DNA of 64,000 bases from Chthoniobacterales bacterium (GCA_044343805.1 JBIJDZ010000001.1:78392-142391); one strand, 5' to 3'; shown: positions 2,599-36,727, numbered from the stretch's first letter. Numbers and translations: made by a program. The notes: a model not told the origin generated them from the sequence alone.

Positions 2599-3635
2599 GA
2601 AGCTTGTGAAGCATGACGCATTTTTTCCAAAACGCGTCGGGCCGCGCCAGAATCGATCGACTCGTTTGCACGCGCCATAGCCTCCTCCCAATCGAGGGCT
2701 AACGCGGCAACCTGCAATGCCGCGGCCGCATTGATCACCACGAGATCCCGCGCCGCTCCACGATGATCCCCCGCAAGTATCCGCTGGAGAATGGTGGCAT
2801 TTTCGGCAGCATCACCCCCGAGCAATTCATCAAGTCGGCCGGCAGGCACACCGAGATCGGACGGATGCAAAGTCGTGGAGGAAGTCGCACCGGCAATCAC
2901 CTCGGCGATAACCGTCGGGCCCAATGTGGATATCTCGTCCATCACTCTCCCTTCACCCGCTTGGCCATGCACAACCCAAGATCGTTCGCGCCCCAAAGAC
3001 GGCAGCACTGAGGCGTAAAGAGCCACAAGGCTCTCGCTGAACACCCCGGCCAACTGATAAGCGGGGCGCGCGGGGTTGAGCAGCGGGCCGAGCATGTTGA
3101 AGATCGAAGCGCGCTTGCGTTCGCCCAAAATCTTACGGGCGGCCACGACCGACTTGAACGCCGGATGAAAACGCGGAGCAAAAAGAAAAACCGCGCCCGC
3201 CTCCTCGATCATTTGTTGCAACCGGTCCTGCGGAGAATCCGGTGAAATGCCGAGAGCTTCCAACACATCCGCCCCACCGCTGCGGGAAGTAATGCCCCGG
3301 TTGCCATGCTTGACCAGACGTGCCCCCGCTCCAGCAGCCACGAACATAACGGCCGTTGACACATTGAACAGGCCAAGCTTGTCACCGCCTGTTCCGCATA
3401 CGTCGAGAACTGGCCCCAGCCCGTCCGCGACCACAAAAGGCTCGGCGCGTTTCATAAAAGCCGAAGCAAATGCCACAATCTCCTCCGGACTTTCTCCACG
3501 CACATGCAGAGCATCGAGAAAGTCCGCTTTCTCCACATCGGAATAAGTAGCCGACAGCAGACCCTCGACGACCGCGTTGACATCTTCGGGTGAAAGAACC
3601 TCGCGTTGACCAACTTTTTCGATCCAACGTTTCAT
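2595..3635 (-). CDS. trpD: Anthranilate phosphoribosyltransferase
   Basis: Contains the motif CGTGGDKLGLFNVSTAVMFVAAGAGARLVKHGNRGITSRSGGADVLEALG. Its length is typical at 346 aa. The ATG overlaps the aroD stop in an ATGA. Confidence 0.9.
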   Translation of the reverse strand: MKRWIEKVGQREVLSPEDVNAVVEGLLSATYSDVEKADFLDALHVRGESPEEIVAFASAFMKRAEPFVVADGLGPVLDVCGTGGDKLGLFNVSTAVMFVAAGAGARLVKHGNRGITSRSGGADVLEALGISPDSPQDRLQQMIEEAGAVFLFAPRFHPAFKSVVAARKILGERKRASIFNMLGPLLNPARPAYQLAGVFSESLVALYASVLPSLGRERSWVVHGQAGEGRVMDEISTLGPTVIAEVIAGATSSTTLHPSDLGVPAGRLDELLGGDAAENATILQRILAGDHRGAARDLVVINAAAALQVAALALDWEEAMARANESIDSGAARRVLEKMRHASQAS

Positions 3636-4327
3636 GGCATGACTTCAGCAAGACGTTCGCGCAATTTTACTGCCAACCATTGGCCTGAGACTTGTGGCCG
3701 GTCGAGATAACCGTAATTGAGTCGCGAACCCGCCACGGCAAGGGCCAAGCGGGAAACGCGCCCCAGAGGCCCCATTCCCATCGTGGACAGTGCCATCGAG
3801 GGATAGAGCGATTGCAACTGGAGAAGCACCGACAAGTCTTTAGGGCTACGCAAAGTTGTGGCAATTTTGACAAAATTCGCCCCGGACCGCCGAGCAGCAC
3901 CTACGGTCTCCCGCAAACGCGCAAGTCCCGGCGTGCCCCGGAAGTCGTGGAATGAGATCACGGTAAAAATCCCGCGCTCGGCAGCCGAAGCCAAGACGGG
4001 TTGCATAGGCCCGACAGATCGCAACTCGACATCAACAGCTGTCGCCAAAGGTAAAAATTCCTCATACAAAGACCGCCGGACGGACGAGGAAAGATTTCCT
4101 GCCCCGCCTTCGACCGGATGACGCGCCGTCAGCAAAAGCGGCGCAGGTATCCTTGAAACCGCCGAGGCAATCGCGTGTCGACTGGCAAGGAGGCAATCCA
4201 AACGAATCTCCACTAAATCAACCGTACCGGGCGGGAGCTTTCCGGCATCCGACAACCCGCGCACCGTATGCGCGGTGGCAACAACCAGCGGCCGTGACGC
4301 GCTCTCGAGCTTTTTCTTAGAATTCAT
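3632..4327 (-). CDS. aroD: Type I 3-dehydroquinate dehydratase
   Basis: Has VEIRLD near the N-terminus, FVKIATT (catalytic Lys context) and STMGMGPLGRVSRL near the C-terminus. It is translationally coupled to trpD. Confidence 0.75.
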   Translation of the reverse strand: MNSKKKLESASRPLVVATAHTVRGLSDAGKLPPGTVDLVEIRLDCLLASRHAIASAVSRIPAPLLLTARHPVEGGAGNLSSSVRRSLYEEFLPLATAVDVELRSVGPMQPVLASAAERGIFTVISFHDFRGTPGLARLRETVGAARRSGANFVKIATTLRSPKDLSVLLQLQSLYPSMALSTMGMGPLGRVSRLALAVAGSRLNYGYLDRPQVSGQWLAVKLRERLAEVMP

Positions 4328-4393: not shown

Positions 4394-5785
4394 ATGTTTT
4401 ATCGTAAACACAAATTCGCACTGCAGCTGAATCAAAGCGCGGATGCCATAATCCTGGCCGCATCCCTCTACTTCAGCTACGCCCTGCGCGCCTACAATAT
4501 CGTGAATATCGATATTTTTCCCGACATTCCACCGTTGGCAAACTTTTTATGGCTTTTCATGGTTGTATGCCCTTTCGGCCCTCTCTTCTTGGAACTTCAA
4601 GGCTTTTACCAATACCCCCTCGAAAAAAGTGTTCGCCGCTCGTTGCAGCAAATTGCCTACGCCGGATTTTGGGTTGGGTTCGTCATTGGTGCTTGTGTCA
4701 TTTTTTTAAAACTCAGCATCCCAAGCCGATCCGTCTTCTTGATTTTTCTGGCCATTGCGCCTGCCGGATTGCTGTTACGCGAGGCACTTTTCCGGTCTAT
4801 TTACATGCGCATACTGTTAAAGGGATCGGAAGGCGAAAGCATCATTCTCGCTGGTTCACCGGATAAAATGAACGAATTGGTGCAAGACCTCTCTCCCATC
4901 CAGCAACTGGAGCTTAATGTGGTTGAAAGGGTCGACCTCGACCGTCAGCCGGTCAAAGACTTGGTCGAGTCCATGCACCGGCATAGTGTAAGTCGCGTGG
5001 TGCTTGCCTTCGGACATCATTCCTCCGACTGCTTGCAAGCCTCCATCACGGCGTGCGAAACGGAGGGCGTCGAAGCATGGATCGCGGCCGATTTCGTTAG
5101 GGCATCCATCGCTCGTCCGACCTATGACTCCCTCGGCAAAACGCCGATGCTGGTTTTCCGAGTTACACCAAGCCTTTCCTGGGCCCTCTTGGTAAAAAAC
5201 CTGATCGACCGCCTGGGAGCTCTCCTCGGGTTGCTTTTGCTTTCGCCCTTGTTTTTGGCCGTAGCCCTCGGAATCAAACTCACCTCGCCCGGACCAGTCA
5301 TTTTTGTGCAGAAACGGGCAGGCAAACATGGCCGGCCTTTCAAGATGTATAAGTTCCGCTCAATGCGAAAAGGTGCAGAGAAGGAACAAGACCTACTCAA
5401 AAACCTGAACCAGATGAGCGGGCCCGTTTTCAAAATCGTCGATGATCCCAGAATCACACCTCTGGGCCGATGGATCCGAAGAACAAGCATTGATGAGTTG
5501 CCGCAACTGTTCAATGTGCTGCTTGGACACATGAGCCTGGTCGGACCCCGCCCCCTGCCGCTCTACGAAGTGGAGAACTTCGAACTCACGGCGCATCGGC
5601 GCCGTTTGAGCATGAAGCCCGGCCTGACCTGCCTTTGGCAAATCAGCGGACGCAATAATGTGCGCGAATTCAGCGACTGGGTTAAACTCGATGTCGAATA
5701 CATCGACAACTGGTCACTCTGGCTTGATTTTAAAATTCTCTTGCGGACGGTGCCAGTAGTCCTCCTTGGAACCGGCGCCCGTTGA
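4394..5785 (+). CDS. Polyprenyl-phosphate glycosylphosphotransferase (WbaP/CpsE-type bacterial sugar transferase)
   Basis: N-terminal TM helices are followed by the C-terminal PF02397-like core (SPGPVIFVQKRAGKHGRPFKMYKFRSM, SGPVFKIVDDPRITPLGRWIRRTSIDELPQLFNVLLGHMSLVGPRP). Confidence 0.85.
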   Translation: MFYRKHKFALQLNQSADAIILAASLYFSYALRAYNIVNIDIFPDIPPLANFLWLFMVVCPFGPLFLELQGFYQYPLEKSVRRSLQQIAYAGFWVGFVIGACVIFLKLSIPSRSVFLIFLAIAPAGLLLREALFRSIYMRILLKGSEGESIILAGSPDKMNELVQDLSPIQQLELNVVERVDLDRQPVKDLVESMHRHSVSRVVLAFGHHSSDCLQASITACETEGVEAWIAADFVRASIARPTYDSLGKTPMLVFRVTPSLSWALLVKNLIDRLGALLGLLLLSPLFLAVALGIKLTSPGPVIFVQKRAGKHGRPFKMYKFRSMRKGAEKEQDLLKNLNQMSGPVFKIVDDPRITPLGRWIRRTSIDELPQLFNVLLGHMSLVGPRPLPLYEVENFELTAHRRRLSMKPGLTCLWQISGRNNVREFSDWVKLDVEYIDNWSLWLDFKILLRTVPVVLLGTGAR

Positions 5786-5846: not shown

Positions 5847-6809
5847 ATGCCCTCAGCATCTTCCAAGCGTGTATCGTTAGTCACCGGCGGCGCCGGTTTC
5901 CTCGGATCTCATTTGTGCGATCGCCTGCTGAACGAAGGACATCACGTAATCGCGGTCGACAACTTGGTTACCGGTAGCGTGGAAAATATCGCCCACTTGG
6001 CCGGAAACCCAAATTTCCGCTACATCAAACAAGACGTCACGCAATACATCTACCTCCCCGACCAGATAGATTACGTCTTCCATATGGCCTCGCCGGCCAG
6101 TCCGATCGACTATCTTGAATTGCCCATTCAGACAATGAAGGTTGGCGCACTCGGCACACACAATGCCTTGGGCTTGGCTAGATCAAAAGGCGCGGCATTT
6201 TTGCTGGCTTCGACTTCGGAATGCTATGGTGACCCACTGGTGCACCCGCAAACCGAAGATTACTGGGGCAACGTCAACCCCATCGGTCCACGCGGTGTTT
6301 ATGACGAAGCCAAACGCTTCGCTGAAGCCCTGACCATGGCTTACCACCGCTACCATCAGGTGGACACCAAGATCGTTCGTATCTTCAATACTTACGGTCC
6401 GCGCATGCGTTTGCGGGACGGTAGGGTCGTTCCGGCTTTCATCGGCCAAGCCCTGACCGGACAACCCATCACTGTCTTCGGAGACGGTTCTCAGACCCGC
6501 AGCTTTTGTTATGTCTCGGATTTGATCGACGGCATCTTTCGTTTGATGATGAGCCGCTTTCACGAACCGGTGAACATCGGCAACCCCCATGAAATGACGA
6601 TCAAACAATTTGCCGAAGCGATCCGTGACCGCATCGCTCCCACGGCCGAAATCGTTTACAAGCCCCTGCCCGTCGACGACCCGAAAGTCCGGCAACCTGA
6701 CATTACCCGTGCTCGCCGTGAGCTCGGCTGGGAGCCGCATGTTGCTTTTGACGCTGGCATTGACAAAACTATTGAGTACTTTCGGGGACGCGTCGCTGCG
6801 ATCATCTGA
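5847..6809 (+). CDS. UDP-glucuronate decarboxylase (UDP-xylose synthase-like SDR)
   Basis: Has a Rossmann motif ([16 protein letters not shown]) and a YDEAKR catalytic YxxxK context. Length and overall pattern match UXS-type extended SDRs. Confidence 0.8.
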
Positions 6810-6842: not shown

Positions 6843-7463
6843 ATGAAAAGCACACTTCGTATCTTCGCGTTGATCTTCGGCGCGATTTGTGCGACCCACG
6901 CGCAACAGATCAACCCCGATTTCAAAATCAACAAAATCACCCCGGATTTCACCACGACACCGGAGTACAACTTCAGTTATGGCCCCAAGAACAAACGGGT
7001 CACCAAGAACAAAGACTTTCTCGAGGCTGAAGTCAGTTTTGATTGGCAACCGCGAGACAAAAAGCCCGACTTCCTCGACGAGCTTACCTTCAACTACTAC
7101 ATCCTTTTGAACAATAAGAGCAGCGAAAATCCCAAAGGGACCCTCCTCACCGGCACAGTCACCCACATCGCTATTCCCCAAGCTAAAAGCATGAATTCCG
7201 TCATGTACGTCAGCCCGCGCACGCTGGAGCGCTTCTTTGGCGGCAAGACTCCCAACAATATCACCGCTGCGGTGGTCGATGTTGGCGTGACGATTACGAA
7301 ACAAGGCCAACTCGTTGCTGAAGCAAGCTGGCAAGGCCGGGGGCAATGGTGGTTGAATTACCAACAAGTCAGCGGATATGTTTTGAACAAGAGCGAAACC
7401 CCCTTTGCGCCCCTCGCTTGGGACTACTACGAGGCGATCAAAACAAAATCTGGCGGCATGTAA
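6843..7463 (+). CDS. Secreted protein of unknown function; first gene of the pilMNOPQ-like operon (position equivalent to Akkermansia Amuc_1102)
   Basis: Has a Sec signal peptide (MKSTLRIFALIFGAICATHA/QQ) and no recognisable enzymatic motif. It starts 33 nt after the UXS stop and ends 30 nt before pilM. The Amuc_1102 equivalence rests on synteny only. Confidence 0.55.
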   Translation: MKSTLRIFALIFGAICATHAQQINPDFKINKITPDFTTTPEYNFSYGPKNKRVTKNKDFLEAEVSFDWQPRDKKPDFLDELTFNYYILLNNKSSENPKGTLLTGTVTHIAIPQAKSMNSVMYVSPRTLERFFGGKTPNNITAAVVDVGVTITKQGQLVAEASWQGRGQWWLNYQQVSGYVLNKSETPFAPLAWDYYEAIKTKSGGM

Positions 7464-7493
7464 CTGGCTACCGGTAGTATCATTTTTCACTGC

Positions 7494-9227
7494 ATGGCTA
7501 AATCACCCACCCGCGTTGCCTCAGTTAATCTCGGCATGCAGACCGTCACCATGGCGGTGTTTGACGTTGCCGCTGGTGGCGGGCTGACTTTATCCACTTA
7601 CGCGCAAGCCGAGTTGATCGCGGATCCAGCAGCAGACGCGACTCGCGCCGGACAACTTCGTTTGGTGCTGGGGGAGTTACGCGAGAAAACCGGATGGAAA
7701 GGCGCCTCGATTGCTTGCGCCGTCCCATCTCAGGGCGTTTTCACCCGTTTCGTCAAAATCCCTAAAGTCGATGCAGACCAAGTCGGACAGGTGCTTTTTT
7801 TCGAGGCCCAACAGAACGTCCCCTACCCGATCGAGGAGGTTGCCTGGAGCTATCAAGTGCTACCTGAGAGAGACGCCGAAAAGCTCAGCGCGCTGATTCT
7901 TGCCACCAAACTCGAATCCCTCGAGGAATGCGTCGACGCTATCCGCGGAGCCAAGCTGGAGCCTGATTTAATCGAAACTTCGCCCACGGCGCTCTACAAT
8001 GCATTTCGGTTCAACTATCCAGAAATTGCCGGCTGCACACTGTTGATCGATATCGGTTCACGCACAACCAATCTGATTTTTATCGAGGGCAACGAAATAT
8101 TCATCCGCACCTTGCCGATCGGAGGCAACTCCATCACCGGGGCTTTGCACAAACGCTTCGACGCCCGCTCTTTCAACGAGGTCGAGGAGTTAAAACGCAG
8201 CGAGGGCATGATTCCTCCGCCAGGCAATTACAGCGGAGCCAAAAGCGAGGACATCGCCGAGATCGGCAAAATCGCCCGTACTGTGATGACTCGCATTCAT
8301 AACGAAATCACCCGTTCCATCACTTTTTACCGGACCTCACAAAAAGGCTCGGCGCCCGCGATGGTTTTTCTGGCTGGGGGCGGAGCTTCGCTGCCTTACT
8401 CAGTCGAATTCTTCAAAGAAAAACTCTCTTTGCCGGTTGAATACTTTAATCCGCTGCGAAGGGTCGGCGTCGGTTCGGGAGTCGATGTCTCTGTGCTGCC
8501 TAAAATAGCCCACCAACTCGGTGAATGCGTCGGGTTGGGCATCAATCTCTTGCTGGATCATTGTCCCCTTGCCATTTCACTCAAATCTCCAAGTTTAGAG
8601 CGAATCAAGGCAGACAAAAAACGACGCCCGTTTCTTGTGGCCGCGGCGGCTCTAATGGTGGGAGCATTGGTTGTCACCGGTCTTTACTATCAAAAGGCGG
8701 CGGATCTTGTTTCGCAGATCAATCAAGAGCTGCAGGATGAGATTGATCCGCTCCAAAAAATATCGGGCCAAATAGCAAACTTTACCAGAGAGCGTGACCA
8801 AATCCTGAAAGACGGGGCCGATCTGGCAGCCGCCCCCCTGCTCCGATCCGGCTGGTCAGCCATCCTGAACGAACTCAACCGCCACCAACCCGAAAAATAC
8901 CTCTGGATCACAAAGCTTGCCCCGTATCCGGCGGCCCCGGGATTAGGCACCACCAGCAAAAGCCCCGCTCCTTCCCCGAACGCCAACAATACAGGTGCAG
9001 CCAATCATCAGGAACCTGCGGTAACGGCACTTTCCATCGAGGGGCTTTACTTGGAGAACCCCGAGGGTCCGGCTGTGGTGGATAAATTTGTGAACGAATT
9101 GTCGAAGTCGGAACTTTTCGACACCTCCGGCGACAGCATTGTCAAACTTCGCGCCACGCAGAGCGGTAATGCATGGGCTTACGAATTCCAAATCCTGCTA
9201 CCGCTCAAAAATCCGATTCCTCTCTGA
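7494..9227 (+). CDS. PilM-PilN fusion: cytoplasmic actin-like ATPase-fold domain, one TM helix, periplasmic coiled coil and PilN-like domain
   Basis: PilM-like motifs are LLIDIGSRTTNLIFIEGNEIFIRTLPIGGNSITGAL and VFLAGGGASLPYSVEFFKEKLSLPVEYFNPL. The TM helix RRPFLVAAAALMVGALVVTGLYY lies at about nt 8622-8690. After it come a heptad-like stretch, a P/A/S/N-rich linker and a small alpha/beta C-terminus. Confidence 0.75.
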   Translation: MAKSPTRVASVNLGMQTVTMAVFDVAAGGGLTLSTYAQAELIADPAADATRAGQLRLVLGELREKTGWKGASIACAVPSQGVFTRFVKIPKVDADQVGQVLFFEAQQNVPYPIEEVAWSYQVLPERDAEKLSALILATKLESLEECVDAIRGAKLEPDLIETSPTALYNAFRFNYPEIAGCTLLIDIGSRTTNLIFIEGNEIFIRTLPIGGNSITGALHKRFDARSFNEVEELKRSEGMIPPPGNYSGAKSEDIAEIGKIARTVMTRIHNEITRSITFYRTSQKGSAPAMVFLAGGGASLPYSVEFFKEKLSLPVEYFNPLRRVGVGSGVDVSVLPKIAHQLGECVGLGINLLLDHCPLAISLKSPSLERIKADKKRRPFLVAAAALMVGALVVTGLYYQKAADLVSQINQELQDEIDPLQKISGQIANFTRERDQILKDGADLAAAPLLRSGWSAILNELNRHQPEKYLWITKLAPYPAAPGLGTTSKSPAPSPNANNTGAANHQEPAVTALSIEGLYLENPEGPAVVDKFVNELSKSELFDTSGDSIVKLRATQSGNAWAYEFQILLPLKNPIPL

Positions 9228-10105
9228 TGGACTGGTTCAAACAAAATCCATTTCTCGGCAGTTTGGCATTTGCGACAGTGCTCTTTGTCATTGCAAGTGG
9301 CTATTACGCCTACACTACCCACTCGGAGTTTGTTCTGCAGACGGAGGAATATTCCGTGAAGACGTCAGCTGTGGCGCAAGCGCGCGGCACCAAGCCCTTT
9401 CCGAACCAGACCAATTTGGAAGCCGCCCAAGCCGAAAAAGCTGAAGCGGAAAAAATTATCGGCGAGATGAATGCACTGTTGTCCCAGAAATCCGGAAAGG
9501 TAGACCAATCTCTCAATCCTCAGGCTTTTCAAGACCGCTTGAATGCCCAAGTAAGCAAGATCGAAAAAGCCGCCCGATCAGCACAGGTCGAGCTCCCTGA
9601 AAACTTTTACTTGGGCTTCGACGAATATCGCAACCAGCTACCATCTGCCACAGCTGCCCCCCTGCTCGGCCAGCAACTCGATTCCATCTCGAGTGTTATC
9701 ACCATTCTGGTCGAGGCCGGTGTGAAGGCAATCAACGCCGTGAGGCGCCAGCCACTCTCTGTTGAATCGGCCAAACAAGACACCACAGATAAACCCGAAA
9801 AAAATCCTAACAACCTGATTCTGGCACCATTTGAAGTTTCTTTTGTCGCCGACCAGACAAACTTTCGTCTGGCCCTCAATAAGATTGTCACCGCCGACCC
9901 CATAATCTTTGTTCGCTTGGTCAGTGTCGCCAATTCGCAGCAAAGCCCTCCCGCCAAACAGAACGGCATGAACTCCGATCCGCAGAACAACGCTGATCAA
10001 CCCAGTGCCGAAACGTCGATCCCCGTTCTTCTTGGAAAGGAAACTCTCAACGTAGATCTACGTCTGGCCACCATTTCCGCCGACAACACCTCGGACAAAA
10101 AATAG
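9227..10105 (+). CDS. PilO-like bitopic membrane protein with Amuc_1100-like architecture
   Basis: The ATG at 9227 overlaps the pilMN stop (TGATG). The order of elements is an N-terminal TM helix (FLGSLAFATVLFVIASGYYAY), a long helical/coiled segment, FYLGFDEY, a ferredoxin-like segment (LILAPFEVSFVADQTNFRLALNKIV), a low-complexity linker and a terminal beta strand (ETLNVDLRLATIS). The 9173 start in the track is inside pilMN. Confidence 0.6.
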   Translation: MDWFKQNPFLGSLAFATVLFVIASGYYAYTTHSEFVLQTEEYSVKTSAVAQARGTKPFPNQTNLEAAQAEKAEAEKIIGEMNALLSQKSGKVDQSLNPQAFQDRLNAQVSKIEKAARSAQVELPENFYLGFDEYRNQLPSATAAPLLGQQLDSISSVITILVEAGVKAINAVRRQPLSVESAKQDTTDKPEKNPNNLILAPFEVSFVADQTNFRLALNKIVTADPIIFVRLVSVANSQQSPPAKQNGMNSDPQNNADQPSAETSIPVLLGKETLNVDLRLATISADNTSDKK

Positions 10106-10116
10106 CTCCCGGATTC

Positions 10117-11157
10117 ATGGATTATCTCAAAGCCAACTACGACCGGATTCTCTTGGTTGTCGCGTCGCTTGCCCTCGTCGGCGCATCCGCCCACGCCCTG
10201 CTCGGGCTAGGCAATATCCGGGACGAATACGTGAAATCTCCGGCGCCAGCCTCGGGGGTGGCTTTTGAACCGAACCAGGCACTTTCGCGAATTCGCAGCG
10301 AGGTGGATCAACTGGTTGATCCGGCAAAATTCGCCTGGCGCGAGGGCGCCACATTGCTTTTTGCCAGTCGCGTCTACCTCCTGCGCGACAACCAATTGAT
10401 CGATATTTTTGAAAGCGATCTCGATCTTTTTGAGGGTATTCCAAACAAGTGGGTACTCGACAATAAACTCGATTACACTGACACCGGTCTGCCCTCCAGA
10501 GACGCCGATGGCGATGGTTTCACTAATCTTGAAGAGTTCTCGGAAAAAACCGACCCCCGCGACCCTGAATCCAAACCGGGATCCTGGAAAAAATTGCGGA
10601 TGCTGAGCAGCAAAATCGACAAGTTGAGGACCAAATTCGTCTCCCTGCCGACTGGTAGCCTGGACCAAGTTGCCATCAACACCATCAGTGCGGAAAATCC
10701 CACCGCTCTCAGCGGTGGCACCAAGTTCTACAAAAAGGGCGAAACGATCAAGCTGGCGGAGATCCTGCCGAATCGTAAGGAGTCGGAAAAAGAGACCGAC
10801 CTCAAGTTTGTCGATGCCAAGATGATCAAGCGCTTCAATCCATCCATTAATGCTGATGAACAAATCCCCCAAATCACGCTCCGCAACATGGTTGACAATC
10901 GTGAAATAGATCTCCTCATGGGCGAAGTCAAAGATTCCCCTTACTCACTAGCGACACTGCAAGATATCCGACCGGGCGGCCAAAGTTTTGAACTTCGTAC
11001 GGGCGAGAGTTTTTCCATCGACGGCAAATCTTACAAATTAATTGACGTCGACATGGAAAACGCCATTATCTCCGACATCGAATCTGGGGAAAGGCACTCT
11101 ATCCCTCAGCAGACCACGAGTCTTCCCCCGGCTTCTAAACAAAACTCCGATTCATGA
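10117..11157 (+). CDS. Membrane-anchored periplasmic protein in the PilP position (Amuc_1099-position), with a thrombospondin-type-3-like acidic Ca-binding motif
   Basis: Has an N-terminal TM anchor (ILLVVASLALVGASAHALLGL) and the motif DADGDGFTNLEEFSEKTDPRDP at about nt 10501-10566. The C-terminus is beta-rich (GESFSIDGKSYKLIDVDMENAIISDIESGE), reminiscent of PilP/GspC HR domains. The stop overlaps the secretin ATG (ATGA). Confidence 0.5.
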   Translation: MDYLKANYDRILLVVASLALVGASAHALLGLGNIRDEYVKSPAPASGVAFEPNQALSRIRSEVDQLVDPAKFAWREGATLLFASRVYLLRDNQLIDIFESDLDLFEGIPNKWVLDNKLDYTDTGLPSRDADGDGFTNLEEFSEKTDPRDPESKPGSWKKLRMLSSKIDKLRTKFVSLPTGSLDQVAINTISAENPTALSGGTKFYKKGETIKLAEILPNRKESEKETDLKFVDAKMIKRFNPSINADEQIPQITLRNMVDNREIDLLMGEVKDSPYSLATLQDIRPGGQSFELRTGESFSIDGKSYKLIDVDMENAIISDIESGERHSIPQQTTSLPPASKQNSDS

Positions 11158-13574
11158 GCGGTCTCACCCCCTCCATTTCCTATTTTGCTAAGCATACTTG
11201 CCTTTTGCTTTTTGCGACACTTACCACACCCTTGACCCTGCTGGGCGGTGGAACGGGAAATGCTCCCAACGCCGGGGTTGAAGCCCAAGCCGAGCTTGAA
11301 ATCGCCAAACGGATGAAGTTGGCCGAGGAATACGCCCCCCAAGCGATGCAAAGGGGTTCGGTTGCCTTGATGGAGAGGGACTACGAGACCGCCTTCGCCC
11401 AATACAAAGCTGCTGTTGACGCCCTTCCGGATGCGCCCCAAGTAAAAGAACTGCGCACGACGGCGCTGGATGGTTTTTCCAAAGCAGCTATGGGCCTAGC
11501 CGAACAGCGTATTGCCGAAGGACGTTGGGAGGATGCCAAGGAAACCGTGCAAAAGATCCTCGAACCGCAATACAACCCGAACTACAAACCTGCGCAGCGC
11601 CTGCTCGCCCGCTTGGAAGCTCCTGATTATTTCAACAAGACCGTGACGCCGGGCCATGTGGCCAAAGTTGAGGAGGTCAAAAAACTCCTCGTCGAAGCTC
11701 AAGGCCTCTACGACTCCGGACGTTTCGATGAGTCTTTTGCCAAATACGAGGCAGTCATCCGCTTAGATCGCTACAACGTCGCGGCTCGTCGTGGCATGGA
11801 GCAAGTCAACCTGGCCCGCACACGCGTTGCTGATGCAGCCTACAACGAAACGCGAGCCTCTATGATTACCCAAGTCGATAAAGCTTGGGAAACTCCCGTC
11901 CGTCGTGTCGACCTCGGTCCGGCTGCTCTCATTGAACAACCGATGCTGACCACGCGTGGAACGCAGTCGGTCAACCGTAAACTGGACGAAATCATTATAC
12001 CCCGCATCAACTTCACGGAAACCACAGTCCGCGCAGCCATTGAATACCTGAAGACCCGCTCGGAGGCTTTGGACACCGACCCGGCAGATCGAGGAGTCAA
12101 TATCGTCCTGAAAATTGATCCCGCGGCCGAATCGCAAACAGTCACTCTCGATCTCGCCAATCTCCCCCTCCGCGAAGCGCTTGCTTACATTACCAACTTG
12201 GCCAGTTTGAAATTTAAAGTTGAACCTTATGCCGTATTGGTCGTGCCTCTTTCCGAACCCACGGAGACTCTTATCACCAAAGAATACCGCGTACCGCCGG
12301 GCTTCATCACAAACTTGCCATCTACTGGCTCAGCAACGAGCGGTGGATCGGCCGCTCAGAGCGGTGCAAAAGTCTTTCTCGAATCCCAAGGGGTTCAATT
12401 CCCTGCCGGCGCAAGTGCAAATTTCTTGGCCAGCAGCAGCCGCCTGATCGTTCGAAACACTCAGGAAAACCTCGATTTGGTTGACGCCCTTGTTGAAAGC
12501 TCAACCGGCGCAGTCCCCTCACAAGTTGAGATTGAATCGAAGTTTGTCGAAATCTCGCAGAACAACCTCAAAGAACTTGGTTTTGACTGGTTGCTCGGAC
12601 AATTCGCACTACCCGGTGGCTCCGGTGTGTTCGGGAGCGGCGGCACCAGCGGCAATCAATTTAATTCGACCGTCCCCCCATCTGGTGGAACCCCTTACTA
12701 CCCATTTATCGTCCCAGGTACAACAACCCCAGTCGGGCAATATCCTGTCACGGCCGGCAATCGCAGCGGTCAAACAGCTATCACCGGGAACGCCCTAGAT
12801 GGCCTCCTTTTTGGCACTCCCGTAGGGCCTGCGGCCGGCATTCTTTCCTTGGCCGGGGTCTTTACCAACCCGCAATTCCAAGTTGTATTGCGAGCACTCA
12901 ATCAGAAAAAAGGTATCGACGTCCTATCTGCACCAAAAGTCACAACCAAGAGTGGTACATCAGCTACTGTTGAAATCGTCCGCGAATTCCGCTACCCAGC
13001 CGAATATGACCCACCGCAAATCCCCCAAACGACCGGTGTAGGGGTACAGCCAGTAACTCCCGCCACGCCAACAACATTCACCATGAAACCGACCGGGGTT
13101 CGCTTGGAAGCCGAACCTACTGTGGGTTCAGATAACTACACCATTGACCTGCGACTTGTTCCTGAAGTAACCGAATTTGAAGGATTCATAAATTACGGGT
13201 CGCCTATCCTCAACCGTGGTGTTGTGGTGACAGACAACGTCATCAACTACCCGGTTTTCAGCGAAAGAAAGGTAGAGACTTCTGTCAGCATTTACGATGG
13301 GCAAACCGTGGTTCTTGGCGGATTGATGCGGGAGGACGTCCAAAAAGTGAACGATAAAACTCCCTTGATTGGCGACATCCCTTTTGCGGGTGCACTGTTC
13401 CGGTCCCAGTCGGACCAGCACATCAAAAGAAACTTGGTCATCTTTGTCACCGTCAACCTTATGGATCCTGCCGGACAACCGATGGCGCAAATGAAACAAG
13501 AAGCTATGGCCTCCGAGGAGATGGCTATGGATAGTGCCATGATGTCATCTGTGGAGCCCCCCTTACCGCAATAA
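11154..13574 (+). CDS. Secretin (PilQ/GspD superfamily) with an N-terminal TPR-like helical region, paralog 1
   Basis: The C-terminal secretin core is GQTVVLGGLMREDVQKVNDKTPLIGDIPFAGALFRSQSDQHIKRNLVIFVTVNLM. Upstream are N-domain-like segments (IIIPRINFTETTVRAAIEYL, VFLESQGVQFPAGASANFLASSSRLIVRNTQENLDLV). Confidence 0.85.
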   Translation: MSGLTPSISYFAKHTCLLLFATLTTPLTLLGGGTGNAPNAGVEAQAELEIAKRMKLAEEYAPQAMQRGSVALMERDYETAFAQYKAAVDALPDAPQVKELRTTALDGFSKAAMGLAEQRIAEGRWEDAKETVQKILEPQYNPNYKPAQRLLARLEAPDYFNKTVTPGHVAKVEEVKKLLVEAQGLYDSGRFDESFAKYEAVIRLDRYNVAARRGMEQVNLARTRVADAAYNETRASMITQVDKAWETPVRRVDLGPAALIEQPMLTTRGTQSVNRKLDEIIIPRINFTETTVRAAIEYLKTRSEALDTDPADRGVNIVLKIDPAAESQTVTLDLANLPLREALAYITNLASLKFKVEPYAVLVVPLSEPTETLITKEYRVPPGFITNLPSTGSATSGGSAAQSGAKVFLESQGVQFPAGASANFLASSSRLIVRNTQENLDLVDALVESSTGAVPSQVEIESKFVEISQNNLKELGFDWLLGQFALPGGSGVFGSGGTSGNQFNSTVPPSGGTPYYPFIVPGTTTPVGQYPVTAGNRSGQTAITGNALDGLLFGTPVGPAAGILSLAGVFTNPQFQVVLRALNQKKGIDVLSAPKVTTKSGTSATVEIVREFRYPAEYDPPQIPQTTGVGVQPVTPATPTTFTMKPTGVRLEAEPTVGSDNYTIDLRLVPEVTEFEGFINYGSPILNRGVVVTDNVINYPVFSERKVETSVSIYDGQTVVLGGLMREDVQKVNDKTPLIGDIPFAGALFRSQSDQHIKRNLVIFVTVNLMDPAGQPMAQMKQEAMASEEMAMDSAMMSSVEPPLPQ

Positions 13575-16159
13575 TGAAAGCAAAATTTCTGGCATTAGGT
13601 GCCGCAACAAGTCTCCTTTTCTCATTGTCATCGGGACTGGCCGGTTCGGGCGGCCAATCGGACTACAATTCGTTAGATAGCGGCGCGGATCGTGAAATCA
13701 CCCGCCGTCAACAAAACGTTGCACTGGCCGAAGACGCCATACGCCGCGGCGATGCTGCCTTGCAGGCAAACAACCTGGAGGCAGCCTACCTCGCTTACAA
13801 GGAAGCCGTGGATTTGATACCCGATGGCGATGCCACCAAAAGCCTGCATGCCAGGGCGCTCGCGCGCTACTCCTCCACCGCAATCCGTTACTCCGAGTAT
13901 CTTGTGAGTGAGGGCGAATATGCTAAGGCGGAAGCCACCGCACGTGAAGTTATCGAACCGCGCTACAATCCGGATTACAAGCCCGCGGCCGTTTTTCTAT
14001 CGCGTCTGGAGCAACCTGATTACTTCAACAAAACCATCACTCCGCAGTTTGCCATGGACCGCGAGCGGGTCACGGAATTGCTCAACGAGGCCAACGGTTA
14101 CTTTGATTCCGGTCGCTACGATATGGCTTTGAAGCGTTACCAACAAGTTCTCGCCATCGACAAATACAACGCCGCTGCACTTCGCGGAATGGAGCAGGTA
14201 GAAGTAGGTAAGCAGCAATACTACGACAGCGCCTACAATGAGACTCGGTCACGCATGCTTTGGCAGGTCGACAAGGCGTGGGAAAGCCCCAAACGGAAAT
14301 TCGCGGATTCCCGCTCCACAGATTCTGCTTCACTGCAGGAAGAGCGCCGAGGAACGGAAATCATGATTTCCCGCCTCAATAGAATCATTATTCCACGCGT
14401 CGATTTTCGTGACACCACCATTCGTCAAGCTGTCGGTTTTCTTCAACAAAGAAGCCGAGATTTGGACACAACCGAGTCTGATCAGGACCGTCGTGGTGTA
14501 AACATCGTTTTGAAGCTTCCCACCACACCGGCCCCGGCATCAGACACAGAAGGCAGCAATGTAACGCCTACCCCCAGCTCCGACAGCCGTATCACGCTCA
14601 ATTTAACCAATGTCCCTCTTTACGAAGCCTTGCGGTATGTTGCGACTCTCTCTGGTCTCAAAGTCAAGGTTGAGCCCTTCGCCGTCTCCTTGGTTCCTCT
14701 CTCCGAACCGACGGATACACTGGAGCAACGTGAATTCAAAGTGCCGCCAGGGTTTATAGCTGAAACTTCACAAGCCTCCGACCCCCTAGCTGTGGCGGGG
14801 CGCCAGTCCTTGGATAGTAGTGCCCCAAGGCTGTCAGCACGACAGAACGCCAGGGTCTTTCTTGAATCCCAAGGTGTTGAATTTCCCTCTGGAGCTAGTG
14901 CGAATTTCATTCCCGGCAGCAGCCGATTGGTTGTTCGCAACACCGTCTCCAATCTTGACCTGATCGAATCTCTCGTCGATGCCGCCATGGCAGAACAGCC
15001 CACCCAAGTGGAAATTGAGGCTAAATTTGTCGATATATCGCAAAATAACCTTAAGGAGCTTGGCTTTGATTGGGCCTTAGGGCCTTTCGCCTTGCCGGGA
15101 TCGGATGCGATATTCGGCAGCGGAGGCACCACCATACCAGCCGGCCAGGCCGCCAACTGGCCCTTTGTTGATCCTTCAACAGGTCAAATCATTGGTCAAG
15201 ACACGGTGACCCGTGGCCTCCGCAGCGGAAGCGGTGTTGGTCCAAACAGAGGTCTATCCGTCAACAGCCTCAATGCCCTGTTAGCACAAAATGTCGGCGC
15301 TCCGGTGGGAGGCACCGCTCCCGGATTTTTTGCCTTATCCGGTATATTTACCAACCCGCAATTTCAAGTCGTCATCCGCGCACTTAACCAAAAGAAAGGG
15401 GTTGACTTGATGGCGGCTCCGAAAATCACCACTAAAAGCGGACAGCAGGGCACCATTAAGATCAACCGCGAGTTTCCTTACCCCCAGCAATACGACCCAC
15501 CGCAAATACCACAGGCAACGGGTGGTGGCAACAACAACGTTTTAGTTCCTCTTATCAACACTCCTCCTGTCGTAACTCCAAGCTTTCCAACGGATTTTAC
15601 CACCAGAAATCTGGGAGTGACTTTGGAAGTGACCCCGCAGGTCGGCTCGGACGGCTATACTATCGACCTTACTTTGGCTCCCGAGGTTGTTGATTTTGAT
15701 GGTTTTATCAACTACGGCTCCCCCATTTTCACGCCTATTCAAGTTGCCAACGTCAACCCATTGAATCCAGCACTCTTAGTTACTGTTCCCCAGCTTTTGA
15801 CAGATAACGTCATCAATCAGCCGATCTTCAGTGTTCGCAAGGTCACCACAAACGTCAGTATCTGGGACGGCCAAACGGTAGCTCTTGGCGGCTTGATCCG
15901 TGAGGACGTGCAGAAAGTGAATGATAAAGTCCCCATCCTCGGCGATATTCCTTTGGCCGGTGCACTCTTCCGCTCGGATATTGACCAAAAAATTAAACGC
16001 AACCTTATTATCTTTGTCACCGCTCGCTTGATGGATGCCGCCGGACAGCCGTTGCGGCCTGAAGACGATGTTGATCAGGAGGAAATTGTTGAACCCTTGG
16101 GACTTCCGGAAGACCTCAAGAAGCCCAGCATCAGCGCCAAAGGTTTTCGCCAAAAATAA
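13574..16159 (+). CDS. Secretin (PilQ/GspD superfamily) with an N-terminal TPR-like helical region, paralog 2
   Basis: The ATG overlaps the paralog-1 stop (TAATG). It has a signal peptide (MKAKFLALGAATSLLFSLSSGLAG). The secretin core is GQTVALGGLIREDVQKVNDKVPILGDIPLAGALFRSDIDQKIKRNLIIFVTARLM. It is collinear with paralog 1. Confidence 0.85.
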   Translation: MKAKFLALGAATSLLFSLSSGLAGSGGQSDYNSLDSGADREITRRQQNVALAEDAIRRGDAALQANNLEAAYLAYKEAVDLIPDGDATKSLHARALARYSSTAIRYSEYLVSEGEYAKAEATAREVIEPRYNPDYKPAAVFLSRLEQPDYFNKTITPQFAMDRERVTELLNEANGYFDSGRYDMALKRYQQVLAIDKYNAAALRGMEQVEVGKQQYYDSAYNETRSRMLWQVDKAWESPKRKFADSRSTDSASLQEERRGTEIMISRLNRIIIPRVDFRDTTIRQAVGFLQQRSRDLDTTESDQDRRGVNIVLKLPTTPAPASDTEGSNVTPTPSSDSRITLNLTNVPLYEALRYVATLSGLKVKVEPFAVSLVPLSEPTDTLEQREFKVPPGFIAETSQASDPLAVAGRQSLDSSAPRLSARQNARVFLESQGVEFPSGASANFIPGSSRLVVRNTVSNLDLIESLVDAAMAEQPTQVEIEAKFVDISQNNLKELGFDWALGPFALPGSDAIFGSGGTTIPAGQAANWPFVDPSTGQIIGQDTVTRGLRSGSGVGPNRGLSVNSLNALLAQNVGAPVGGTAPGFFALSGIFTNPQFQVVIRALNQKKGVDLMAAPKITTKSGQQGTIKINREFPYPQQYDPPQIPQATGGGNNNVLVPLINTPPVVTPSFPTDFTTRNLGVTLEVTPQVGSDGYTIDLTLAPEVVDFDGFINYGSPIFTPIQVANVNPLNPALLVTVPQLLTDNVINQPIFSVRKVTTNVSIWDGQTVALGGLIREDVQKVNDKVPILGDIPLAGALFRSDIDQKIKRNLIIFVTARLMDAAGQPLRPEDDVDQEEIVEPLGLPEDLKKPSISAKGFRQK

Positions 16160-16212: not shown

Positions 16213-16809
16213 ATGCTACTCGGTGTTACCGGAGGCATTGCCTCAGGCAAGTCGACTTTTCGGCGTCTCCTTACTGCGAAGCATAAGTTTACGGTATTCG
16301 ATGCCGATGAAAGCGTTCACGATCTCCTCGCGAAGGATGAAAGAGTCATCTCGGCAATTCGTACCCACTTCGGAGATTCAGTCCTGAACTTTGATGGCGG
16401 GATTAATCGTCCCGCGCTGCGCGAAGCTGTCTTTACCGACAACAAACTAAGGAAGCAATTGGAAGAGATTATTCACCCTGTTGTCCGGCACCAATGGCAG
16501 TTGCTGCGGCAGTCCTGCATGGCCAAAAATATGGACTTTTTGGCGGAAATCCCCCTTCTATTCGAAACCAGTGCTGAAAATTTTTTTGATGCGACGATTT
16601 TGGTCGCCACATCCACTCCGGTGCAACAAGTTCGCCTGGCGGCACGTGGACTTTCACCACAAATTGCCCAAGCCATGCTTGCCAGCCAATGCCCTATGGG
16701 CGAAAAAGAAAAGCGTGCCACCGTCGTGGTCTGGAACGACGGAAGCCTTATCGGATTGGAGCAGCAAGCTCGCATGCTTATCGAACGACTTTTCCCATCT
16801 CCGACATGA
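16213..16809 (+). CDS. coaE: Dephospho-CoA kinase
   Basis: Has the P-loop MLLGVTGGIASGKST at the extreme N-terminus. Length (198 aa) and pattern are typical. Confidence 0.9.
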   Translation: MLLGVTGGIASGKSTFRRLLTAKHKFTVFDADESVHDLLAKDERVISAIRTHFGDSVLNFDGGINRPALREAVFTDNKLRKQLEEIIHPVVRHQWQLLRQSCMAKNMDFLAEIPLLFETSAENFFDATILVATSTPVQQVRLAARGLSPQIAQAMLASQCPMGEKEKRATVVVWNDGSLIGLEQQARMLIERLFPSPT

Positions 16810-18143
16810 ACAAGTCCTCCGAGGTTTCCATCACCGGGAAAAAGACGGGGCGCGCCACTTTTCCACAGCAATCCTCCGAGGTATCCGGTGCATCATTCTG
16901 GTTGTCTGACCTGCAAGCTCTCACTCATGCCGAACTTGCCGGACTAATCCAACGCTATGAATTGCGTTTGCGCCCCGATGGAACCAAACGCCATTTGATC
17001 TTCGACCTCTGTCGCTTCTTTCTCTCACTCGGTGCTGAAATATACGCCGAAGGAATGGTTGAAGACCTCGGGGATCACGCGATGTTGCGCTGGCCCATCC
17101 ACAACTTTGCCAGCGGACCGGATGACCTTTTTGTATCCATCGGGCTTGTTCGCGAATACGGCTTACAAACGGGCCTGCAAATTTGCGGAACCCTGAAGTC
17201 TCCCGGCGAACGCGATCGATATTGCGGACTGGCCAAGATATCGTCCATTGAAGGCATCCCTCCAGCAGAGTGGAAGCCGTTGATCCCCTTCGACAAACTC
17301 ACCCCGCTGTTCCCGCAGGAGCGTATTATTCTCGAAGCGGTCAAAGATTCCACGCTTAGCACTCGAGCCGTGGATTTGATCGCTCCACTTGGCAAAGGCC
17401 AGCGAGCACTCATCGTCGCGCCGCCCCGCACAGGAAAAACCATCCTCCTGAAACATATCGCACAAGCGATACGCTCGACCTCTCCTGAAGTTCGATTGAT
17501 TTTACTACTCGTTGATGAGCGTCCCGAGGAAGTCACCGACTTGCGGAGGTCGATCGACGCCGATATCTACAGCTCAACTTTCGACGAGTCCCCCCAACGA
17601 CACACCCAACTTTCTGAATTTGTGATCGAGCGGGCCAAGCGCTTGGTCGAACTCGGCCAGGATGTTGTCATTCTTCTCGACAGCATCACCCGCTTGGCCC
17701 GCGGCTATAACAATCTCCAACCGGGCAAGGGCCGCATCATGTCCGGTGGCGTCGACTCCAAAGCGCTCATGAAACCCAAACGTTTCTTCGGGGCCGCACG
17801 TAATACGGAAGAGGGTGGCAGCCTCACCATTGTCGCCACTGCTCTCGTCGAGACCCAAAGCCGCATGGACGATCTGATATTCGAGGAATTCAAAGGCACC
17901 GGCAATATGGAGGTGCACCTCGACCGGACGATTGCCGATCAGCGAATTTTTCCCGCCATTCATGTGACCAAGTCGGCCACACGACGCGAGGAAAACCTTT
18001 ATCATCCGGATGAACTTGCGCGCGTGATTGTGCTACGCAAGCAATTGAACGAACTCCCGGCCGTTGAGGCAATGGAGATGCTCGCGCGCAATCTACAACG
18101 CACCAAAACGAACGCCGAGCTGCTCCTCGGCGGTCTGCGCTGA
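16806..18143 (+). CDS. rho: Transcription termination factor Rho
   Basis: Motifs present are [16 protein letters not shown] (Walker A), [12 protein letters not shown] and [29 protein letters not shown]. The ATG at 16806 overlaps the coaE stop (ATGA). The longer track ORF from 16689 lies inside coaE. Confidence 0.95.
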
Positions 18144-22517: not shown

Positions 22518-23306
22518 ATGACGTTAGCCCGTTACACTGGCAGCATCATATTCTCCTTCGCCCGCTACTTGGGTGAACTTTTTTTACTGGCCTCCGAAAC
22601 CATTCGAGGCATCGCGCATGGTCAGGTGCGCTACCGCCTCGTTATTCATCAAATCTACGAAATCGGGTACCGCTCGCAACTGGTGGTCTTGATCACCGGC
22701 GCTTTCACTGGCGCGGTGTTTGCCACGCAGACTTTTTTCCAATTCCACCGCCTGCAAATGGATACCGCTGTGGGACCTGTCGTCAGCGTCTCGATGTTTC
22801 GCGAACTTGGACCGGTGCTTTGCGGGCTGATGGTGGCCGGTCGCGTCGGCGCCGCGATGTCGGCCGAGTTGGGCACAATGAAAGTCACCGAGCAACTCGA
22901 TGCCCTGCGCGCCTTGGCAGTTCATCCGGTGGACTACCTCGTCGTGCCGCGGTTCCTCGCCATGCTTGTTTCGATGCCGCTGCTTGTCGCCGAATGCATC
23001 GCGATCGGCATCTTGGCCGCATATGTCGTAACAACGCAGATCCTCGGCGTTTCCGAGGTATACTACCTCCATAATATGCTCCACTTCACCGGCGGAAGGG
23101 ATGTCGCGATGGGCTTGATCAAAGGAATGGTTTTCGGTGTCGTTATCGTGTTCATCAGCTGCCATCAGGGGCTCAACGCCAAGGAAGGAGCAGTGGGCGT
23201 CGGTCGCGCGACGACCGAAGCCGTTGTCATCGGCTCTCTCTTTATTCTCATCGTGAACTTTTTTCTGACGATGACGCTCAACATTTTCTTTCCCGCAGGC
23301 AAATGA
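22518..23306 (+). CDS. mlaE: MlaE-family ABC transporter permease
   Basis: Has the MlaE-like pattern (IYEIGYRSQLVVLITGAFTGAVFATQ, MSAELGTMKVTEQLDAL). It is followed by overlapping mlaF. Confidence 0.85.
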   Translation: MTLARYTGSIIFSFARYLGELFLLASETIRGIAHGQVRYRLVIHQIYEIGYRSQLVVLITGAFTGAVFATQTFFQFHRLQMDTAVGPVVSVSMFRELGPVLCGLMVAGRVGAAMSAELGTMKVTEQLDALRALAVHPVDYLVVPRFLAMLVSMPLLVAECIAIGILAAYVVTTQILGVSEVYYLHNMLHFTGGRDVAMGLIKGMVFGVVIVFISCHQGLNAKEGAVGVGRATTEAVVIGSLFILIVNFFLTMTLNIFFPAGK

Positions 23307-24067
23307 GCCAGCATCACCAACCGCGCGTGGCCATCTCGGTCGAGAACCTGGTTCAGACACTCGGGGGACAAGAAATCCTGCGCGGGTTCAGCCTCAAGGT
23401 TTATGAGGGGGAAACCCTCGTTCTCCTCGGTCGGAGCGGAGGGGGTAAAAGCGTGTTTCTCCGGCACTTGATCGGCCTCATCCAGCCCGTCAGCGGCTCT
23501 ATTACTGTTGACGGTCACAATGTCGCCCAACTCAAGGAAAGAGAACTCACTCCTGTGCGTCGGTGCATGGGCATACTCTTCCAAAACGGCGCGCTCTTCG
23601 ACTCGATGACCGTGGCTGACAACGTAGCCTTCCCCCTCCGTGAGCGAGGGGAAACGGACGAAACTCTTATCGTGGAAAAAGTCAGGAATGCTTTGCAGAT
23701 GGTTGACCTTGACGGCCAGCAATCAAAAATGCCGGTCAACCTCAGCGGGGGCATGCGAAAACGGGTTGCCCTTGCCCGCGCACTCATCAACCAACCTCGC
23801 TGCATGCTTTACGACGAGCCGACAGCAGGACTCGACCCCATCGTGGCCGACAGCATCGACCTCCTTATCCGTCGACTGCAACGCAAACTCGGCGTCACCT
23901 CCATTGTTGTCACCCACGACATGAAAAGCACCCTCACCATTGCTGACCACGTGGCTCTCTTGCACGAAGGACGTTGCTACTTTTACGGCACCTGCGATCA
24001 ATTGCGCGCCTCGACGGATCCGGTCATCCGTGATTTTGTGGAGGGGCGCTCACACGAAGAACCCTGA
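23303..24067 (+). CDS. mlaF: MlaF-family ABC transporter ATP-binding protein
   Basis: Has Walker A (LLGRSGGGKS), the ABC signature (LSGGMRKRVALARAL) and Walker B (MLYDEPTAGLD). Its start overlaps the mlaE stop by 4 nt. Confidence 0.85.
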   Translation: MSQHHQPRVAISVENLVQTLGGQEILRGFSLKVYEGETLVLLGRSGGGKSVFLRHLIGLIQPVSGSITVDGHNVAQLKERELTPVRRCMGILFQNGALFDSMTVADNVAFPLRERGETDETLIVEKVRNALQMVDLDGQQSKMPVNLSGGMRKRVALARALINQPRCMLYDEPTAGLDPIVADSIDLLIRRLQRKLGVTSIVVTHDMKSTLTIADHVALLHEGRCYFYGTCDQLRASTDPVIRDFVEGRSHEEP

Positions 24068-24070
24068 ACC

Positions 24071-36618: not shown

Positions 36619-36727
36619 GCAGGTTGTTTTGTTTTCCACAGATCTACCGCGCTGGCAACGCCAATGCCGCAGCTCCACACGGGAAGAATCGACTTGGAGC
36701 TTACAACATTACAGTCTGAATTCCACT

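Follow-up and report, generated by a model that had tools for sequence, protein, structure and literature searches.

A six-gene locus occupies positions 6843-16159 on the + strand of a 64-kb stretch of DNA from a Chthoniobacterales bacterium (hereafter the window, meaning the whole stretch that was analysed), and encodes a secreted protein, a PilM-PilN fusion, two predicted bitopic inner-membrane proteins and two tandem secretins (Table 1). By sequence, it is a well-conserved Chthoniobacterales counterpart of the Amuc_1098-1102 cluster of Akkermansia, also known as the MUL2 pilus-like cluster, as all six proteins match NCBIfam equivalog models of the five Akkermansia families. An earlier description of the window made from the sequence alone (the sequence-only reading) had already called this an Amuc_1098-1102-type locus, and the matches to the models of all five families and to the Protein Data Bank (PDB) structures of Amuc_1100 and Amuc_1102 bear this out. 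It had also listed six same-strand genes separated by gaps of 30, -1, 11, -4 and -1 nt, which the coordinates of the open reading frames (ORFs) reproduce exactly. The family and its synteny have been published before, as has its occurrence in Chthoniobacterales, and Pfam and NCBIfam hold curated entries for it: precomputed matches to the newer-release Pfam families PF28028 'Amuc_1100' and PF28178 'Amuc_1102' are found on the identical proteins of metagenome contigs. In an older local Pfam set, genes 1, 3 and 4 gave nothing above threshold.

Table 1. Genes of the locus and its flanks in the window, with family models, scores and model cut-offs in bits.
Feature	Position	Strand	Length	Family model or evidence	Score	Cut-off
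Gene 1, Amuc_1102-family (MUL2A-like) secreted protein	6843-7463	+	206 aa	NF042424 Amuc_1102_rel	112.4	55
Gene 2, Amuc_1101-family (MUL2B-like) PilM-PilN fusion	7494-9227	+	577 aa	NF045709 Amuc_1101_fam, full length	551	650
Gene 2, C-terminal PilN-like part	8541-9227	+		INLLP-aligned segment, transmembrane helix, coiled coil, alpha-beta-beta-alpha-beta-beta domain
Gene 3, Amuc_1100-family bitopic protein, PilO position	9227-10105	+	292 aa	NF038287 Amuc_1100_fam	178	180
Gene 4, Amuc_1099-family bitopic protein, PilP position	10117-11157	+	346 aa	NF042425 Amuc_1099_fam	143.5	50
Gene 5, secretin A, Amuc_1098 family	11154-13574	+	806 aa	NF042912 Amuc_1098_fam	838.7	750
Gene 6, secretin B, Amuc_1098 family, tandem paralogue of gene 5	13574-16159	+	861 aa	NF042912 Amuc_1098_fam	860.5	750
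AroD, 3-dehydroquinate dehydratase, upstream synteny marker	3632-4327	-		PF01487, E=4e-31
Initiating sugar transferase (Bac_transf)	4394-5785	+		Pfam
NAD-dependent sugar epimerase/dehydratase, 33 nt upstream of gene 1	5847-6809	+		Pfam
CoaE, dephospho-CoA kinase	16213-16809	+		Pfam
Rho	~16806-18143	+		Pfam

Proteins of the locus

By hydropathy, the products of genes 1, 5 and 6 begin with a Sec-type signal peptide and those of genes 2, 3 and 4 have one transmembrane helix each, a topology that fits an alignment complex with an outer-membrane channel. The start of gene 3 was set at 9227 by the N-terminus of its homologues (MDWFKQNPF); the mechanical ORF start is at 9173. The guanine-cytosine (GC) content of the locus is lower than that of its surroundings (0.52-0.54 versus 0.56-0.60).

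Gene 2 consists of a cytoplasmic actin-like PilM domain (residues 13-349), a transmembrane helix (residues 380-398) and a periplasmic PilN/PilO-like part (residues ~400-577). The PilM domain matches PF11104 PilM_2 (E=5e-28) and TIGR01175 pilM (134.6 bits with a cut-off of 133) and is well conserved, with 85% identity to the related locus L002 and ~40% to distant loci. The architecture is shared with the Amuc_1101 family, as residues 1-576 align to positions 1-606 of the 608 in NF045709 (E=4.9e-165). A profile built from the C-terminal ~230 residues in 40 gene 2 orthologues matches Myxococcus xanthus PilN (3jc8_Na) with E=9.7e-7 over residues 4-122, in an alignment that begins at the N-terminal INLLP region and extends over the transmembrane helix and the coiled coil; the Pfam PilN family gives no match on gene 2. 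The AlphaFold2 model of the C-terminus, built from 11 sequences and used for secondary-structure order only, has low confidence (predicted local distance difference test, pLDDT, 55.7), and its order of helix, beta-beta, helix, beta-beta fits PilN. The best Foldseek matches of this model are PilO (3jc8_Oa, 2rjz and 5uvr) and Amuc_1100 (6lad), all of them weak (E>0.001). The fusion of PilM and PilN put forward in the sequence-only reading is thus upheld by PilM_2, TIGR01175 and the C-terminal profile, and the PilN assignment of the C-terminus, now backed by a sequence profile, goes beyond the published work that we found.

The two bitopic proteins that follow are less readily placed in the pilus series. 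Gene 3 has a transmembrane helix (residues 9-27) and a periplasmic domain, and matches the Amuc_1100 structures 6kny/6lad in the PDB with E=1e-11 as a single sequence and E=5e-32 as a family profile; PF28028 is present on all 104 gene 3 homologues. The Pfam PilO family does not match gene 3, the PDB profile search gives Amuc_1100 alone, and hhalign of gene 3 with the PilN-like profile aligns the transmembrane region only, with a probability of 47%. A preprint refers to the crystal structure of Amuc_1100 as PilO/PilN-like (bioRxiv 10.64898/2025.12.30.696933). Gene 3 may be called PilO by its position and by this literature only, and the sequence link to PilN/PilO is not made; of its earlier description as PilO-like, the position and the membership of the Amuc_1100 family stand. 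The Amuc_1100-like gene is the fastest-evolving of the locus (70% identity to L002 and 32% to L019), so that the host-active protein of Akkermansia falls into that part of the machine which is under the least constraint.

Gene 4, of which a homologue is named 'Amuc_1099 family pilus-like system protein' by NCBI, has a transmembrane helix (residues 11-29) and a beta-rich C-terminal region (residues 160-331), modelled by AlphaFold2 with a pLDDT of 78. We tried PilP as a candidate and rejected it: neither Pfam (E<=0.1) nor the PDB profile search gave a match to PilP or GspC, the hits being small beta-barrel noise. In Foldseek the best match of the model has E=4.7e-3 with TM-scores of ~0.1, and none reaches E<=0.001. 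The protein is anchored by its transmembrane helix, is not a lipoprotein and has no lipobox. An analogy between Amuc_1099 and PilP thus finds no support, and what stands of the earlier assignment of gene 4 to the PilP position is the position. Residues 129-140 (10501-10536) form a D-x-D-x-D-G...E loop in which D129, D131, D133 and E140 are invariant in 36 Amuc_1099-family sequences; together with a weak TSP3/EF-hand-like match, this suggests a conserved periplasmic calcium site. Across the PilM/N/O/P/Q series, profile searches therefore recover PilM, PilN and the secretin, and do not recover PilP or, by sequence, PilO.

The product of gene 1 carries a Sec-type signal peptide with cleavage between MKSTLRIFALIFGAICATHA and QQ, in agreement with its earlier description as secreted, and matches the PDB structure of Amuc_1102 (7dsz, E=2.4e-8). 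All of the ~30 gene 1 orthologues have a Sec leader with an AxA/Q-type site, and a class III leader was found in none of them. The Amuc_1102 family is therefore not a type IV pilin in the sense of processing and assembly; to judge by the leader, this protein is something other than a type IV pilin, a conclusion that goes beyond the published work that we found.

The locus ends in two secretins, as the sequence-only reading had recognised. Gene 5 matches PF00263 Secretin (E=3e-32) and has an N-terminal TPR_19 match, a weak STN/N0 match and a signal peptide; gene 6 matches Secretin (E=1e-33) and has N-terminal TPRs. A Pfam AMIN match is not listed for either of them, and a TPR region is found instead. 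The two are 50% identical over their full length (413/820, BLASTP). General secretin models score well under their cut-offs: genes 5 and 6 reach 105 and 119 bits with the PilQ model TIGR02515 (cut-off 284) and 132 and 129 bits with the GspD model TIGR02517 (cut-off 351).

In a neighbour-joining tree, secretins A and B form separate orthologue clades, each with the same ~20 genomes, and a single secretin is present in other Chthoniobacterales, in one Akkermansiaceae locus and in one Verrucomicrobiales locus. The secretins are the slowest-evolving genes of the locus (90% and 85% identity to L002, 56% and 55% to L019, for A and B, respectively), comparable to Rho, and both are therefore under purifying selection. 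From the tree and these identities, the tandem duplication is old and lineage-specific with both copies retained, which again goes beyond the published work that we found. A distant locus ('bacterium WB5_1B_140', L057:2406-7279) has a tandem secretin pair of its own that branches together and lies beside an Amuc_1100/1099-like pair; this branching indicates an independent duplication.

Conservation and surroundings

One genome per GTDB species was scanned with an Amuc_1100-like alignment, and the flanks of the returned loci were taken up to 10 kb; homologue searches were made with gene 3, gene 4 and the C-terminus of gene 2. The scan gave 54 loci, nearly all of them in metagenome-assembled genomes of Chthoniobacterales or other Verrucomicrobiae, and several metagenome contigs were found in addition. 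The nearest relative is a Lake Mendota Chthoniobacterales bin, with 77% identity in gene 3 and 92% in gene 2. The recurring order is [AroD, sugar transferase, epimerase] - 1102 - PilMN - 1100 - 1099 - secretin(s) - CoaE - Rho. Because the order is kept gene for gene in the 54 genome loci and in several metagenome contigs, the six-gene cluster is not a chance arrangement.

The run of genes on the same strand is longer than six, including the sugar transferase and the epimerase before the locus and CoaE, Rho and RNase III after it, and the operon boundaries of the six-gene cluster are therefore not fixed. In simple scans, promoter-like sites were no commoner than in shuffled sequence (6 sites, with 7.6 expected), and the cluster is not bounded by any convincing terminator. 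The pair of sugar transferase and epimerase recurs upstream in many Chthoniobacterales loci; these two genes might be co-transcribed with the locus and might link the machine to a glycan, through protein glycosylation or exopolysaccharide. In the 30-nt gap 3' of gene 1, positions 7463-7475 hold a short stem-loop and then a T-rich tail, as a weak match. By attenuating read-through, this stem-loop might cause the Amuc_1102-like protein to be made in excess over the machine parts.

By Pfam, the ~47 other ORFs of the window are housekeeping or glycan-synthesis genes, among them PBP1-type enzymes, TrpD, AroD, CarB, MlaEFD, DHFR/ThyA, isoamylase, transketolase, LpxK and rhamnose/O-antigen-type genes. 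Two class A penicillin-binding proteins are encoded at 634-2598 and 34105-36678, a MlaE-MlaF-MlaD-type operon for a lipid-asymmetry ABC transporter lies at 22518-24877, and a 664-aa protein encoded at 36617-38611 has a DCC1-like thiol-disulfide oxidoreductase domain together with the N- and C-terminal domains of the lipase maturation factor LMF1. On the minus strand, the stretch at 55800-64000 has a GC content of 0.48-0.51 versus 0.55-0.60 elsewhere and a glycan/O-antigen-type gene set: a RmlA-like nucleotidyltransferase, two sugar dehydratases, a C-methyltransferase, S-adenosylmethionine-dependent methyltransferases and family 2 glycosyltransferases (one of 995 aa), as well as a 497-aa ORF with no Pfam match. 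This stretch may be a horizontally acquired surface-glycan island.

The aro gene upstream of the locus and the coaE gene just downstream of the secretins echo the type IV pilus operons of Acinetobacter baylyi. In that species, aroB/aroK and coaE are essential genes of type IV pilus operons, and comMNOLQ includes two essential downstream genes (PMC5542475). The likeness could be ancient synteny or coincidence.

Motor genes and the working of the machine

What could drive such a machine? Pfam found no T2SSE, T2SSF, peptidase A24 or N_methyl domain in the ~47 other ORFs of the window, and a six-frame regular-expression search of the 64 kb gave no class III prepilin leader, so that the earlier statement that motor, platform, peptidase and class III prepilin genes are missing from the window holds. 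Motif scans in six frames covered the window and 60 related loci for prepilin leaders, the T2SSE Walker A motif and the PilD motif GGGD[x]K. The Walker A motif G.TGSGK[ST] was absent from the window and from ~1.04 Mb of 61 related stretches, so that genomic linkage of the module to a motor within ~5-10 kb occurs in none of them. The scans of the related loci returned one plausible prepilin N-terminus, one antisense noise match (L027) and nothing else. The plausible class III prepilin N-terminus (…GLTLIETVVIVAILGILASLL…) lies on the + strand of L031 near 18751, a few kb downstream of the secretins.

The type IV pilus genes of Pseudomonas aeruginosa are scattered. The same is true of A. baylyi, in which they form eleven operons spread over the chromosome, and comMNOLQ, followed by aroK/aroB, lies apart from the operons of PilB, PilC, PilT and PilU (PMC5542475). 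As the type IV pilus operons of model organisms are scattered over the chromosome, a neighbourhood with no motor is not proof of an orphan system. According to the same preprint, pilus or pseudopilus proteins of A. muciniphila are encoded elsewhere in its genome (Amuc_1523-24, Amuc_1583, Amuc_0394 and Amuc_0745; bioRxiv 10.64898/2025.12.30.696933). The label 'orphan' given by the sequence-only reading thus goes further than the data. In the literature we found no usable inventory of PilB/PilT for Akkermansia or Chthoniobacter. A 64-kb window lacking pilB, pilC, pilD and pilT is what canonical pilMNOPQ operons look like.

In 2016-2017 the cluster was reported to be a putative type IV pilus cluster. 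Two later publications state that MUL2 is required in A. muciniphila for the acquisition of mucin into internal compartments (Davey 2023, as cited in PMC13174399 and PMC12418764), and according to one of them, products of mucin need the MUL genes, 'encoding pili and periplasmic protein complexes', to accumulate in internal compartments (PMC12418764); a 'mucinosome' is described in a further paper (PMC13524802). In a 2026 survey in ISME J, MUL2 synteny is followed across Akkermansiaceae and other Verrucomicrobiales, and the locus is found in 97/235 Chthoniobacterales genomes, with a secretion channel protein, CoaE, Rho and AroD as flanks, a signal peptide on Amuc_1102 homologues and a lower GC content of the locus, and fucoidan uptake is reported for aquatic Akkermansiaceae (PMC13174399). 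The earlier view that what this machine assembles or secretes had not been established needs to be revised for mucin acquisition by MUL2, which is published; it continues to apply to the filament or cargo and to the energy source.

We favour, with a probability of about 0.6, a MUL2-type trans-envelope scaffold, derived from the type IV filament superfamily, that has its motor encoded elsewhere and takes part in glycan uptake. In gene 2, a cytoplasmic PilM-type domain is joined by a PilN-like docking segment and a transmembrane helix to a periplasmic PilN-like domain. The predicted bitopic inner-membrane proteins of genes 3 and 4 stand beside it, and genes 5 and 6 encode paralogous outer-membrane secretins with a fused TPR region that is pilotin-like. 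Together, the three inner-membrane proteins would make up the ring by which the secretin channel is lined up with a platform in the inner membrane. Energy would come from a PilB/GspE-type ATPase which, together with the platform, the peptidase and the (pseudo)pilins, would be encoded elsewhere, as in model type IV pilus systems. As the MUL2 mutants of A. muciniphila suggest by analogy, the machine may capture large glycans or glycoproteins and pass them across the outer membrane into the periplasm, a 'selfish' mode of uptake. The Amuc_1102-like protein would be a periplasmic or surface accessory and not a true type IV pilin.

Several observations weigh against this reading. Genes 2 (551 versus 650 bits) and 3 (178 versus 180 bits) fall under the NCBI equivalog cut-offs. 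The sole 'pilin-like' product has a Sec leader and lacks a hydrophobic alpha-1 helix, and no filament subunit was found. Genes for a PilB/T ATPase, a platform, a peptidase and a prepilin are absent from the window and from the ~1.04 Mb of related stretches, and the tie to an unlinked motor is one that we infer. Foldseek of the pLDDT-78 model of gene 4 against the PDB finds neither a PilP nor a GspC fold. A role in glycan uptake is carried over from a relative in a different order of Verrucomicrobiota with proteins that are ~25-38% identical, as measured on the PDB alignments of Amuc_1100 and of Amuc_1102 as well as on an Akkermansiaceae locus (L048), and no gene for a carbohydrate-active enzyme adjoins the locus.

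The missing linkage to motor, platform, peptidase and prepilin genes, which extends over ~60 related stretches as well as the window, could also mean that the machine is a motor-less derivative: either a gated conduit, passive or coupled to the proton-motive force, or a site from which a surface-forming Amuc_1102-like protein is exported. The Sec-dependence of gene 1 in ~30 orthologues is in line with this, and the published descriptions name no dedicated ATPase, the supplements of PMC13174399 being silent on ATPase, PilB and PilT. However, the PilM domain, which in known systems couples to cytoplasmic ATPases and the platform, is kept and well conserved here, the motors of model organisms are as a rule unlinked, and the expression of other pilus or pseudopilus proteins of types IV and II is reported for Akkermansia. 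We therefore regard a motor-less derivative as unlikely.

The fused architecture of gene 2 is also the arrangement of GspL, which raises a type II-like exporter, with gene 2 as GspL, gene 3 as GspM, gene 4 as GspC and genes 5 and 6 as GspD. It would secrete periplasmic proteins in the folded state, for instance enzymes that degrade glycans or the Amuc_1102-like protein, and the uptake defects of mutants would then be indirect. The best score of the two secretins with a generic NCBIfam secretin model is that of GspD (132 and 129 bits), slightly over PilQ (105 and 119 bits), but it stays far under the 351-bit cut-off. Similarly, a Sec-dependent gene 1 product suits a type II substrate and PMC13174399 says that MUL2 acts 'similar to a secretion system', but the pilM model TIGR01175 scores above its cut-off on gene 2 with no GspL family listed at the thresholds used, genes for GspE, GspF or GspG-K are adjacent in no locus, and gene 4 has neither the homology region (HR) nor the PDZ fold of GspC. 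Moreover, the phenotype described for Akkermansia is that mucin products are not accumulated inside cells. An exporter of this kind thus seems improbable to us.

A slimmer chance falls to a stand-alone machine for inward transport, derived from the type IV filament superfamily, that has neither a PilB-type motor nor true pilins and is gated at the outer membrane, in this Chthoniobacterales clade, by two obligately co-retained secretin paralogues. As part of this proposal, the paralogues would form a hetero-oligomeric secretin or paired import and export channels, fed or capped by the Amuc_1102-like protein. To our knowledge, neither a hetero-oligomeric secretin nor a motor-less PilM-containing system has been described. 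Finally, the homology of PilM, PilN and secretin and weak matches to HofQ DNA-uptake porin models would suit the alignment complex of a competence-type DNA-uptake or twitching pilus with no special glycan link, which is very improbable given that the HofQ matches cover ~65 residues and lie far under cut-offs, that Amuc_1099, 1100 and 1102 (three of the five families) are specific to this Verrucomicrobiota system, that ComEA, ComEC and pilin genes were not found nearby and that A. muciniphila is described as non-motile (PMC12418764).

Comparison with known systems

The likeness to the type II secretion system lies in a GspL-like fused protein with cytoplasmic, transmembrane and periplasmic parts, in its two bitopic partners (GspC-GspL-GspM), in a secretin (GspD) and in a Sec-dependent periplasmic protein as a possible substrate. 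The locus differs from it in that the cytoplasmic domain belongs to the PilM family and not to GspL, the GspD score is well under its cut-off, gspE, gspF, gspG-K and gspO are not adjacent, and no T2SSE Walker A motif or pseudopilin leader adjoins the locus.

With the PilMNOPQ complex of type IVa pili (P. aeruginosa and M. xanthus; PDB 3JC8), the locus shares the PilM actin-like domain, the PilN-like segment, the transmembrane helix and the coiled coil, as well as a bitopic protein in the PilO position, a secretin at the end of the operon and a place apart from the motor genes. In contrast to the type IVa pilus, PilM and PilN are fused here, the sequences of the proteins in the PilO and PilP positions do not reveal them as PilO or PilP, and gene 4 encodes a transmembrane-anchored protein with a novel beta-rich fold, whereas PilP is a lipoprotein. 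The secretins here carry N-terminal TPRs with no AMIN match listed, and an extra Sec-exported protein comes first.

The closest likeness is to MUL2 of Akkermansia, with which the locus has in common all five families in the order 1102-1101-1100-1099-1098 (Amuc_1102 being MUL2A and Amuc_1101 MUL2B), CoaE and Rho downstream, AroD nearby, the TPR-secretin architecture, the Sec signal peptide on Amuc_1102 and the lower GC content of the locus. It differs in having two tandem, 50%-identical secretins and not one Amuc_1098 of 907 aa (PMC4960237), in an identity of ~25-30% to Amuc_1100 and Amuc_1102 over the PDB alignments, in the sugar transferase and epimerase directly upstream, and in its host, a free-living freshwater-type Chthoniobacterales, so that mucin is not the substrate here.

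As the family, the synteny and the presence in Chthoniobacterales were known beforehand, the discovery is incremental. Nonetheless, the Amuc_1098-1102 cluster encodes the much-studied host-active protein Amuc_1100 and is needed for mucin foraging by Akkermansia, and the comparison sharpens two questions, namely whether there are an unlinked motor and filament and why two secretins persist side by side. The divergent free-living copy marks the core of the system as the PilM-PilN fusion, the Amuc_1100, Amuc_1099 and Amuc_1102 proteins, a TPR-secretin and the CoaE-Rho flank, and sets it apart from the secretin duplication and the sugar-transferase neighbours, which are lineage-specific features.

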